A stretch of 64,000 bases of DNA from positions 1,376,001-1,440,000 of the forward strand of contig OZ243938.1 in the NCBI GenBank assembly GCA_965214095.1. The letters are read 5' to 3'. Both the position numbers and the translations under genes were made by a program. The notes under the pieces were generated by a model that made no database searches, was not told where the DNA came from, and saw nothing but the letters and a program-made list of their open reading frames with translations. Position 1 is the stretch's first letter. Each line of letters starts with the position of its first letter. The DNA is from Candidatus Poribacteria bacterium (GTDB lineage Bacteria; Poribacteria; WGA-4E; WGA-3G). Shown here one piece after another: positions 26,362-41,876 of this stretch.

Positions 26362-27466
26362 CTATTTTGCATCTGGTTTAAGTTTGAGATAACTCTCAAT
26401 AAACGCATCAATTTCACCATTTAGGACTGCGTCAACATTTCCAGTTTCAACATTTGTCCTGGAGTCTTTCACACGTTGATAAGGGTGAAGCACATAAGAT
26501 CGGATTTGACTACCAAAGTCAATATTTCGTCTTTCGGGTTGTAGTTTAGCGAGTTCCGCGTCTCGCTGTGCACGAAAATGGTCATACAAACGAGATCGTA
26601 ACACTTTCATAGCAATATCACGGTTTTTATGCTGTGAACGCTCGTTCTGACACTGAACCATTATATTTGTCGGTATATGTGTAATACGAACAGCAGAGTC
26701 CGTAACATTGACATGCTGTCCACCAGCACCGCTTGCTCGGTAGGTATCTATACGAAGGTCTTCAGCATTTATCTCTACATCAATACTATCATCAATCTCA
26801 GGTGTAACATGCACTGCAGCAAATGAGGTATGACGCCGATTGTTAAAATCAAAAGGAGATAACCGTACAAGACGATGGACACCAGATTCTGCCTTCAAGT
26901 AACCATATACATAAGTGCCTTTAACCAGAATGGTCGCGCCCTTTATCCCTGCCTCATCTCCTGCAGTTAGATCCACGATTTCTGTGGTAAAACTACGCTG
27001 ATCACACCAACGTAGATACATCCGCATGAGCATCCCTGCCCAATCCTGTGCATCAACGCCTCCTGCACCAGGATGTATGTTGAGAATGGCATTGTTTTCA
27101 TCAAACTCACCATCCAACATTAATCGGAGTTCAATTTTATCAAACTGTGTAGCAACAACTGAAAGACCAGTCTGTATTTCCGATTCCAGACTTGAATCAT
27201 CTTCTTCAATAGCAAGTTCAAGAAGAACTTTCAGATCATCAACAGTATTCTGTAATTTCTCAAATTCGCTGATTTCATCTTTGAGTTTGGCAATTCCTTG
27301 ATTGACAGTCTGAACCCTTTGAGAGTTATTCCAAAAATCGCTTGCCATCGCCTCTTTTTCAAGGTCTTCTAACTCTTTCTGTTTGGTAGGTAAGTCAAAG
27401 ATACCCCCTAAGTTCATTCAGTCTGTTTAATACGGCATCTACATCTGCAACTAAATCTGTTAACAT
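26362..27466 (-). CDS. prfB: Peptide chain release factor 2 with programmed +1 frameshift
   Basis: SPF and GGQ motifs; ATG 27466 gives 23 codons ending at AGGGGGTATCTTTGAC (minus strand 27409-27394). Confidence 0.96.
27394..27409 (-). promoter_or_regulatory. RF2 autoregulatory frameshift site (internal SD + CTT TGA C)
   Basis: Canonical AGGGGG-TAT-CTT-TGA-C. Confidence 0.95.
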
Positions 27467-40065: not shown

Positions 40066-40094
40066 TTGACATTTTGATTAATCAATGATATGGT
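40066..40094 (+). promoter_or_regulatory. Sigma-70 promoter upstream of the peroxiredoxin
   Basis: TTGACA-N17-TATGGT with extended TG. Confidence 0.5.
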
Positions 40095-40245
40095 TAAATA
40101 ACATCGTAGATGTAGGTGAACAACCATTCACTATTTACGGTGTTTATAAATTCTACATTGAACGTCCGAATAAACCTAATTGAACTTTTATTCAGGATGG
40201 GTTAGGAAACTACACCTACTCAGATTAGAATATTGAGGTATAGAA

Positions 40246-41265
40246 ATGTTTCAAAGAGTATCTTTTTACACTGCTGGCGTTGTACTACTTATAGTTTTAT
40301 TGTCAACCCCAGTAATTACAGCGGAGAATGAAGTGGAAAAACCGAAAGAACTTGAAGTGGGGATGATTGCCCCAAATTTTACACTAAAAGATGAGACCGA
40401 TACCGACCGAAATCTAAACGAATTCTTAGGTAAGAAAAATGTTGTACTTGCATTTTACCCGAAAGACTTTACAGGTGGATGAACAGCAGAACTTCAGTCG
40501 CTCCGGGATAAATTGAGCGACATAGAAAAAACCGAAACTGTACTGTTAGGAGTCAGTGTTGACACTGTCGATTCACATAAAAGGTTTGTGGACGAAAACA
40601 AGTTCGGATTTTCACTATTAGCTGATACGGAATTTGAGATTAGCAAACAATATAGCGGTATAATGGAAAGGTTCAACGCATCAAATCGTGTGACCTTCAT
40701 TATTGATAAAGCAGGATATATCCGTGCGATTGATAAAAAAGTCAATGTAAGAACGCATGGTGAAGATGTTGTTAAACAAATAAAGGAAGCAATACCGAAA
40801 ATAGAAGTTGGTCAACTTGCACCCGAATTCTTCACAGAGGATGGAGAAGGGAAAATCCATCAACTCAGTAAACTACGTGAAAAAAAGAATGTTGTCCTTG
40901 CATTTTATCCGCGAGATTTTGGACGTGGCTGAACGGCTGAAGTTTGCTCGCTCCGTGATGAGTCGAGCGGTTTTGCTGAACACAATGTTCAAGTCTTCGG
41001 TATTACTCACAACGATCTTGAGTCCAGACAAAAGTTTGCAGAAGATAATAAATTGAACTTCCCGCTTTTGGTAGATACCCAGAAAAATCTTGCATTACTC
41101 TTTGGTGCTGCAAAGAAACCAGACGATGAACGTTTGAAACGGCTGACAATTATCATTGACAAAGAAGGTAAAATCGTCAAGATTGACAAAGAGGTTAACC
41201 CAAGCACACACGGTGCGGATTTAGTGAAATTCTTCAAAAATCCTGAAACACCACAGAACAATTGA
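40246..41265 (+). CDS. Secreted tandem BCP/PrxQ peroxiredoxin, 339 aa, with two predicted selenocysteines (U79, U229)
   Basis: ORFs 40246, 40513 and 41053 share one frame; TGA at 40480 (FYPKDFTGG-U-TAE) and 40930 (FYPRDFGRG-U-TAEVC) occupy the peroxidatic Cys position. Confidence 0.85.
40497..40521 (+). promoter_or_regulatory. SECIS-like hairpin 1
   Basis: GTCGCTC-CGGGATAAATT-GAGCGAC, 14 nt after the TGA at 40480. Confidence 0.65.
40946..40968 (+). promoter_or_regulatory. SECIS-like hairpin 2
   Basis: GCTCGCTC-CGTGAT-GAG(T)CGAGC, 13 nt after the TGA at 40930. Confidence 0.65.
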
Positions 41266-41876
41266 TGAAGCTAAAGACATTAACGGAAATTCGCAATAAT
41301 GTTGCACTCGGGACATCCATAGTTTTCAGTCCGTTTATAGTGCCAATTGTTACTGCTATCTTTGTCATTCTTAAGCATGCAGAAACGAGTAGAGAACTTT
41401 TGCAGTGGCTTGTAGTTATATCAATATTTGTCACTGTACTGCCAATATTTGTAATAATCTTGCTATATCGCTTCTCGAAGGTGAGTAATATACATTTGCA
41501 TGCGAAGGAAGAACGTCTCATTCCGCTCTGTTTCACTATGGTGAGTATGATAGTAGGGACGTACGTCTTATATAAAATTGGGGCGAATAAAAGTATAATA
41601 TGGGTGTGTCAGGCTTTCATTGTTAACAGTGTAGTTTTCTCAATAATCACGCCATTATGGAAAATAAGTTTCCACACAAGTGTTGCAACTGGATGCATTA
41701 TGGTTTTGACTTTATTGGTCAACTTAAATTTGGTTTGGTTATTTCTATTAATGCCATTGATCGCTTGGGCACGAGTATACCGGGAACGACATACTCCCCT
41801 TCAAACTGTCGCTGGGACCCTCTTAGCAATTGTGAATACAATGCTCTTTTTCATTGTTCTACCACCTACCGTGTAA
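41265..41876 (+). CDS. PAP2-like integral membrane protein
   Basis: About 6 TM helices; WKISFH, WARVYRERHTPLQ; TGATG overlap with the peroxiredoxin stop. Confidence 0.7.
   Translation: MKLKTLTEIRNNVALGTSIVFSPFIVPIVTAIFVILKHAETSRELLQWLVVISIFVTVLPIFVIILLYRFSKVSNIHLHAKEERLIPLCFTMVSMIVGTYVLYKIGANKSIIWVCQAFIVNSVVFSIITPLWKISFHTSVATGCIMVLTLLVNLNLVWLFLLMPLIAWARVYRERHTPLQTVAGTLLAIVNTMLFFIVLPPTV

Follow-up and report, generated by a model that had tools for sequence, protein, structure and literature searches.

Peroxiredoxins (Prx) with selenocysteine (Sec) at the catalytic site are known from bacteria, and PrxU of Eubacterium acidaminophilum is reportedly a Sec-containing member shown as such by experiment, in the work of Sohling et al. 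2001. The gene considered here lies in a stretch of 64,000 nucleotides from a Candidatus Poribacteria bacterium (assembly GCA_965214095.1, contig OZ243938.1, positions 1,376,001 to 1,440,000 of the forward strand; hereafter the window, in whose coordinates all positions are given unless otherwise stated) and encodes two fused Prx domains when two in-frame UGA codons are read through. Membership in PrxU (NCBIfam NF040737) is rejected for its product, with 90.2 bits against a cut-off of 270, and the two belong to different Prx subfamilies.

A family of Sec-containing Prx (PF00578/COG1225 Bcp, motif TxxU) is listed among selenoproteins with one Sec in the available parts of two sources (PMC13188914, PMC9312934). 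The protein described here shares with this listed family the fold, the PxxxTxxU motif, Sec at the peroxidatic position and a UGA followed by a downstream selenocysteine insertion sequence (SECIS). It differs, as far as those listings extend, by its two fused domains, two Sec residues and two SECIS elements, by a predicted signal peptide and, in the family designated f1, by a second domain that lacks the motif threonine. Bacterial selenoproteins with 2-3 Sec residues are also listed, for example MbdU and the methyltransferase/UXPK-star double selenoprotein (available part of PMC13188914). Like them, the present gene would have more than one UGA recoded in a single bacterial mRNA; unlike them, it is a duplicated peroxiredoxin, as the proteins described in that part have other folds or are fusions of unlike domains. 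The best matches to the individual domains, Bcp1 of Sulfolobus solfataricus (3DRN) and AhpE of Mycobacterium tuberculosis (1XVW), are by contrast single-domain Cys enzymes. Finally, PprX of Caulobacter crescentus is a periplasmic BCP/PrxQ peroxiredoxin reduced by TlpA and ScsB, according to the available text of PMC3322552. The present protein would resemble PprX as an exported BCP/PrxQ-class peroxidase, its own signal sequence being predicted, and PprX is a likely guide to the recycling of an envelope Prx; PprX, however, is a single-domain Cys enzyme and the present protein a tandem one with two Sec.

The reading preferred here, with a probability of about 0.85, is that of a tandem BCP/PrxQ-type peroxiredoxin with Sec at both catalytic sites, decoded through SECIS elements, probably exported, and probably recycled in the manner of PprX. 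A literature search returned no paper that describes a peroxiredoxin in tandem form or with two Sec, or the selenoproteome of Poribacteria, and the supplementary tables of selenoproteome surveys may list the form. The Sec-Prx family is known; the doubled architecture with two Sec seems undescribed. An earlier annotation made from the letters of the window (the sequence-only reading) had called such a protein unusual. That word is somewhat too strong, since Sec-Prx is a listed family, bacterial proteins with several Sec are known and the form is fixed across a whole order instead of being peculiar to this genome.

One reading frame with two peroxiredoxin domains

A single plus-strand frame runs from ATG 40246 to TGA 41263-41265 and yields 339 residues on read-through, its in-frame breaks being limited to TGA 40480-40482 (codon 79) and TGA 40930-40932 (codon 229). 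Under translation table 11 the list of open reading frames (ORFs) splits it into 40246-40482, 40513-40932 and 41053-41265. The sequence-only reading had already joined these fragments into one frame broken only by the two TGAs, with exact coordinates and length, and had quoted the two active-site motifs, FYPKDFTGG-U-TAELQSLRD and FYPRDFGRG-U-TAEVCSLRD, without error. The elements on which the argument rests are the following.

40246-41265, plus strand: coding sequence of the tandem PrxQ selenoprotein, 339 residues and terminal TGA (frame, Pfam, orthologues)
40357-40728, plus strand: PrxQ/BCP domain 1, residues 38-161, 1-Sec type, with P72-x3-T76-x2-U79 and Arg148 (Pfam AhpC-TSA)
40480-40482, plus strand: UGA codon 79, selenocysteine 1, at the peroxidatic position of domain 1 (frame and alignments)
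40497-40521, plus strand: SECIS-like hairpin 1, a 7-bp stem GUCGCUC/GAGCGAC with an 11-nt loop, beginning 14 nt past the UGA (folding and covariation)
40807-41208, plus strand: PrxQ/BCP domain 2, residues 188-321, with U229-x4-C234, Gly226 for the motif Thr, and Arg299 (Pfam Redoxin)
40930-40932, plus strand: UGA codon 229, selenocysteine 2, at the peroxidatic position of domain 2 (frame and alignments)
40944-40970, plus strand: SECIS-like hairpin 2, a 10-bp stem with one bulge and a 6-nt loop CGUGAU, apex CUC-CGUGAU-GAG (folding and covariation)
40945-40947, plus strand: TGC codon of Cys234, the presumed resolving residue (invariant in the aligned sequences)
41263-41265, plus strand: terminal TGA, a true stop with a second TGA right after it and no hairpin downstream

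The read-through protein contains two AhpC/TSA stretches (Pfam PF00578, 215.3 bits against a cut-off of 26). It also matches the NCBIfam equivalog NF006960, Bcp, a thioredoxin-dependent thiol peroxidase, with 177.6 bits against a cut-off of 140, a score that sums the two domains. Eight positions are invariant in 30/30 aligned sequences: P72, T76, C(U)79 and R148 in domain 1, and P222, C(U)229, C234 and R299 in domain 2. R148 and R299 represent the catalytic arginine of Prx; R148 aligns with that of Bcp1 and AhpE, and in AhpE a Cys aligns with Sec. A distant tandem protein of 29% identity, P0022, has Cys at both positions. The proposal that each TGA occupies the catalytic Cys position of a BCP/PrxQ domain, with Cys to be found there in homologues, is borne out by AhpE and, at both positions, by P0022.

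The PxxxTxxC(U) motif is complete in domain 1 (P72, T76, U79), and domain 2 has P222 and U229 but Gly226. This change from Thr to Gly is a fixed trait of family f1, being found in 23/23 sequences of genus g1 and in 12/12 sampled from other f1 genera; Thr is retained in the six f2-f4 sequences sampled and in the f2-f4 members of a set of 40 loci described below. C234 is the sole Cys of the protein, and the corresponding +5 position of domain 1 is Q. The sequence-only reading was therefore right on all three counts, namely a 1-Sec domain 1, a U-x4-C domain 2 and a missing Thr in the latter. The +5 position of domain 1 is variable: Q here, C in most of genus g13, and N, R or E elsewhere. At two loci, L089 and L091 (genera g17 and g18), the motif Pro of domain 1 is replaced by Leu (FYLKDFTGGU) and Sec is kept, a further deviation from the standard Prx motif.

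An AlphaFold2 (AF2) model places a low-confidence helix at residues 6-19 and disorder at 20-32, followed by two confidently packed thioredoxin-fold domains (pLDDT 83.9, pTM 0.82), the packing between domains resting on the pTM of this single model. Solved structures match one domain each (Bcp1 3DRN and AhpE 1XVW; target TM-score 0.81-0.86, E 2.3e-22), and in the structure search no solved chain spans both domains (query TM-score at most 0.41).

Conservation and decoding of the two UGA codons

The two TGAs are conserved in every two-domain orthologue read, far beyond what chance would produce. In a set of 40 related genomes, with 40 loci read codon by codon, a two-domain frame with at least two TGAs occurs in 36/40 relatives, with 48-93% identity over all three segments. 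The other four comprise three genomes of genus g3, in which the gene is single-domain with one TGA at its active site, and one g1 genome (G009) without the gene. TGA stands at both active sites in 36/36 two-domain sequences (the gene itself and 35 relatives), and 18/18 further orthologues from other genera have U at both, so that both-site TGA is found in all 54 two-domain orthologues read. Cys was seen at neither site in any orthologue read. Across the phylum, the gene is matched in 154/176 genomes (E <= 1e-40), all in one order; by family the matches are 107/111 in f1, 11/11 in f2, 29/29 in f3, 6/7 in f4 and 0/17 in f5-f11. Among the 150 matches listed in a hand-read table, 143 have exactly two TGAs, four have three and three have one, the last being two truncated matches and one paralogue.

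Contigs from a second study, which derive from a related strain with scattered differences, span both TGAs and are unchanged there. The contigs of three further runs match without difference and may be the assembly's own source. Conservation in relatives and persistence in independent contigs, two of the points that the sequence-only reading had named as able to refute it, both come out in its favour.

The machinery for Sec insertion is encoded in the 5.2-Mb genome assembly, as that reading had anticipated. The gene for tRNA-Sec (78.1 bits) adjoins selB, selA is found with 538.8 bits, and selD is present with one TGA in its own frame; all four matches lie above their cut-offs. TGA is at the same time an ordinary stop in this genome. 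The prfB gene of release factor 2 (RF2) is located in the window at 26383-27417 on the minus strand (509.6 bits, cut-off 370; a single open frame that matches profile positions 9-353). Of the 1379 open frames in the genome with 400 codons or more, 269 close with TGA, and an internal TGA occurs in 0/9 neighbouring genes. The presence of RF2 and the ordinary use of TGA elsewhere exclude a genome-wide reassignment of the codon.

Bacterial SECIS elements have a G-containing apical loop and a spacing of about 16-37 nt from UGA to loop. At both sites of the present gene the hairpin loop starts 24 nt after the first base of the UGA (position 25, with the U of UGA as 1). Pairing at site 2 reaches 92.8% of cells over 40 sequences against 27.7-49.0% with the partner slid, and at site 1 83.1% over 36 sequences against 21.6-49.8%, both comparisons being made with controls that are biased, as the structure was derived from the same related sequences. 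Double changes are observed at site 2 (C-G to U-A and G-U to U-A). At site 1 three pairs are altered on both sides, and the covariation score is reached by 0/500 shuffles, to which the same bias applies. Codons 85-91 each use a single codon where the residue is shared among the 23 g1 sequences, and codons 234-241 nearly do so, against a gene-wide mean majority-codon share of 0.727. The hairpin apex CUC-CGKGAU-GAG resembles the CUC-CGGGU-GAG that follows selD's own UGA, and four other Prx-like genes with TGA in the genome have hairpins at a similar distance. No hairpin is found after the terminal TGA (fold of the next 60 nt, z = -0.22), and the terminal stops of orthologues are TAA, TAG or TGA. 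Together with the genes for the machinery, these patterns strongly support SelB/SECIS-directed insertion of Sec at both UGAs, as judged from sequence comparison.

The strict apex motif gives just eight matches in a genome scan, of which two follow an in-frame TGA, those of selD and of site 2, and is too narrow for a SECIS consensus of the genome. Site 1 is shaped like site 2 in families f2-f4; family f1 has lost the apical three pairs of site 1 through a change from Glu to Lys/Asn, and the stem there has moved in register. Full freezing of codon choice is likewise seen, in the 23 sequences of the genus, in windows that begin at codons 22-26 (about 40309-40350, codons 22-35). These windows take in the last part of the signal peptide and the segment ENEVEKPKE, with just five informative codons each.

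Elsewhere in the genome, three adjoining AhpC/TSA-like frames (G000:C1:4477651-4479886) each have a single in-frame TGA at a site of the UxxC type, and so does one more Prx-like frame (G000:C1:3107041-3107517). In these four frames the hairpin apex lies about 24-27 nt downstream of the TGA. Genes for selenoproteins of the thioredoxin fold are numerous in this genome.

Export, catalysis and competing explanations

The N-terminus displays a basic residue, a hydrophobic run and a small-x-small end (...ITA/EN here; ...ALA/EN and ...PLALA/EN in orthologues). The export predicted by the sequence-only reading is supported by the look of this N-terminus, which is kept in orthologues. The protein is probably exported to the cell envelope, judging by these residues and by the N-terminal helix and disordered linker of the AF2 model. 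As for recycling, the genome contains one gene for a DsbD-family (DsbD_TM) transporter, a 622-aa frame that is a candidate only for feeding this protein; by analogy with PprX, an exported thioredoxin-like protein served by such a transporter would probably be the reductant.

In the proposed mechanism, the hairpin located about 14 nt past each UGA would act as a bacterial SECIS and recruit SelB with Sec-tRNA(Sec). Sec would be inserted at both UGAs, termination would be avoided, and the hairpin-less TGA at 41263 would end the protein, which a Sec-type (secretory) signal peptide would direct to the cell envelope. There, as expected from the family, each selenolate would reduce peroxide and be converted to a selenenic acid. 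In domain 2 this acid would be resolved by Cys234 to a selenenylsulfide, and domain 1, which has no resolving residue in this genus, would act as a 1-Sec enzyme. Both domains would then be recycled by the exported thioredoxin-like protein fed by the DsbD-family transporter.

Several points weigh against this reading, beyond the bias of the hairpin controls. Folded as single sequences, the two hairpins give z = -1.56 and -0.99, which are not significant alone, and their 5' arms both encode the S-L-R-D motif, so that their conservation is partly driven by the protein. The N-terminus could possibly be an uncleaved membrane anchor instead of a signal peptide. No reductant is encoded beside the gene among the neighbouring genes inspected. 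The absence of the Thr described as absolutely conserved in Prx (available text of PMC3322552) makes the peroxidase activity of domain 2 less certain. Two successive recodings may be inefficient. A search for sequencing runs listed no RNA run, and transcription, translation and Sec incorporation are predicted from the DNA.

The loss of this Thr opens a different view of the two domains. Domain 1 would be the only peroxidase and domain 2 a fused selenol/thiol module that resolves or recycles it, a built-in relay comparable to an intramolecular 2-Cys Prx dimer. The fixed Thr to Gly change throughout the f1 sequences sampled, the lack of a resolving Cys in domain 1 of this genus with C234 as sole Cys, and the confident packing of the two domains by AF2 speak for such an arrangement. 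It is nevertheless unlikely: domain 2 has the full PxxxTxxU motif in families f2-f4, single-domain relatives on the domain-2 side exist without domain 1, Arg299 is invariant, and in genus g13 domain 1 carries a Cys of its own at +5. A broader idea, which is tentative and rather doubtful, is that Sec has freed the site from the conserved Thr, with domain 2 of f1 being either a Thr-independent selenoperoxidase or the fused relay that recycles domain 1. In f1 this domain keeps Gly-Arg-Gly-Sec where Thr-Gly-Gly-Sec is expected, under long purifying selection. Inefficient decoding could alternatively turn the gene into a selenium-dependent switch that yields mainly a truncated peptide of 78 residues or a one-domain enzyme ending at 228, and the full-length protein only when selenium is plentiful. 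UGA recoding does compete with RF2, which is present here, and the site 1 hairpin of this genus combines a shorter stem with a large loop of 11 nt; but conservation beyond U229 equals that of the remainder, both SECIS elements are kept in all orthologues, a product ending at 228 would be useless for want of the domain-2 core, and truncation at 78 loses the catalytic residue. Such a switch is improbable.

An activity other than that of a peroxidase, namely that of an exported Prx-like thiol:disulfide (selenol) oxidoreductase acting on envelope proteins or small molecules, would find company in the many Prx-like UxxC-type selenoprotein genes of the genome and an echo in the weak NCBIfam match to ResA (84.7 bits, below the cut-off of 170). 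Since the active site is of the Prx type (PxxxTxxU with the conserved Arg) and not UxxC, and the family and fold searches rank Bcp1, AhpE and Bcp highest, this activity is very improbable. As for a gene broken by two nonsense mutations or by errors of sequencing, or the use of TGA for Trp or Gly in this genome, the observation in favour is that W was assigned to both sites by gene callers working on short metagenome contigs. Against it stand the same two TGAs in all orthologues read, across four families and in independent contigs, as well as RF2 and the stop usage of TGA detailed above, with no internal TGA in the neighbours; W or G at the catalytic position would moreover kill a Prx. On these grounds the pseudogene, sequencing-error and reassignment readings are rejected, with virtually no probability left to them.

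The sequence-only reading had expected that standard pipelines would call the gene a pseudogene. The full-length database entries examined for the peroxiredoxin, from short metagenome contigs, bear no such label and are translated with W at both sites, TGA being read as Trp. W at both sites is a gene-caller artefact, and these entries are further TGA/TGA orthologues. The tandem selenoperoxidase gene is real, conserved and mis-annotated.

Neighbourhood, ancestry and significance

Three further features complete the locus.

40235-40238, plus strand: putative ribosome-binding site GAGG, 7 nt 5' of the ATG, proposed from the letters only
40246-40323, plus strand: probable Sec-type signal peptide, residues 1-26, with cleavage guessed after V-I-T-A
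41265-41876, plus strand: ORF of a multi-pass membrane protein of 203 aa, weakly PAP2-like, whose ATG overlaps the peroxiredoxin stop (TGATG)

Upstream of the peroxiredoxin lie genes for a GFO/IDH/MocA oxidoreductase and a PhyH-like dioxygenase; downstream lie YebC and ruvCAB. The membrane ORF matches PAP2 below the cut-off (Pfam E 3.9e-4), its atlas neighbours are partly PAP2 proteins, and NCBIfam gives no match for it or for the next ORF. It stands directly downstream of the peroxiredoxin in 18/18 related loci. The TGATG overlap and this linkage indicate that it is probably co-translated as an operon partner, and it is possibly a functional partner of the peroxiredoxin. A sequence scan found no terminator between the peroxiredoxin gene and the downstream ORF. 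Promoter-like sites in the region number 9, against 7.1 expected, which does not exceed chance. One of them, at 40066-40094 on the plus strand (TTGACA, 17 nt, TG-TATGGT; 10/12 matches), lies past the PhyH stop and about 150 nt before the ATG.

The history of the gene can be followed in a domain tree of 33 domain rows from 18/40 loci, whose single, very long outgroup branch leaves the root insecure. Domain 1 separates from domain 2 at 100/100 support and each side repeats the same families, a pattern that fits one duplication, SECIS included, which would have preceded the divergence of the four families of the order. The single-domain g3 genes group on the domain-2 side. These genes (L047-L049, family f3) encode a single-domain Sec-PrxQ with U-x4-C and no signal peptide, and have either lost domain 1 secondarily or survived as relics of the gene that preceded the duplication. 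An extra paralogue, L050 (G014:C108), has a decayed domain 1 (FCPTDF...GS) with Ser for Sec, and its domain 2 keeps the TGA; in the database proteins P0016 and P0021 the domain 2 motif is lost. Decay of one domain has thus occurred more than once.

For the biology of selenium, the gene is an example from nature of a short bacterial mRNA that is recoded twice under the direction of SECIS elements. It also catches a duplicated SECIS in the course of diverging, site 1 in f1 being without its apical three pairs and shifted in register. Domain 2 of f1 is, moreover, a naturally occurring Prx active site that uses Sec and lacks Thr, which allows a direct test of the role of Thr and of whether Sec replaces its contribution. 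If the relay described above were true, the protein would be a self-contained two-selenium redox relay in an oxidising cell envelope. If exported, the protein would intercept peroxides ahead of their entry into the cell, a plausible role in host tissue. Lastly, a gene found in nearly every genome of a major order of sponge symbionts is fragmented or mistranslated by gene callers, so that the symbionts' capacity to deal with oxidants and their demand for selenium are under-counted.

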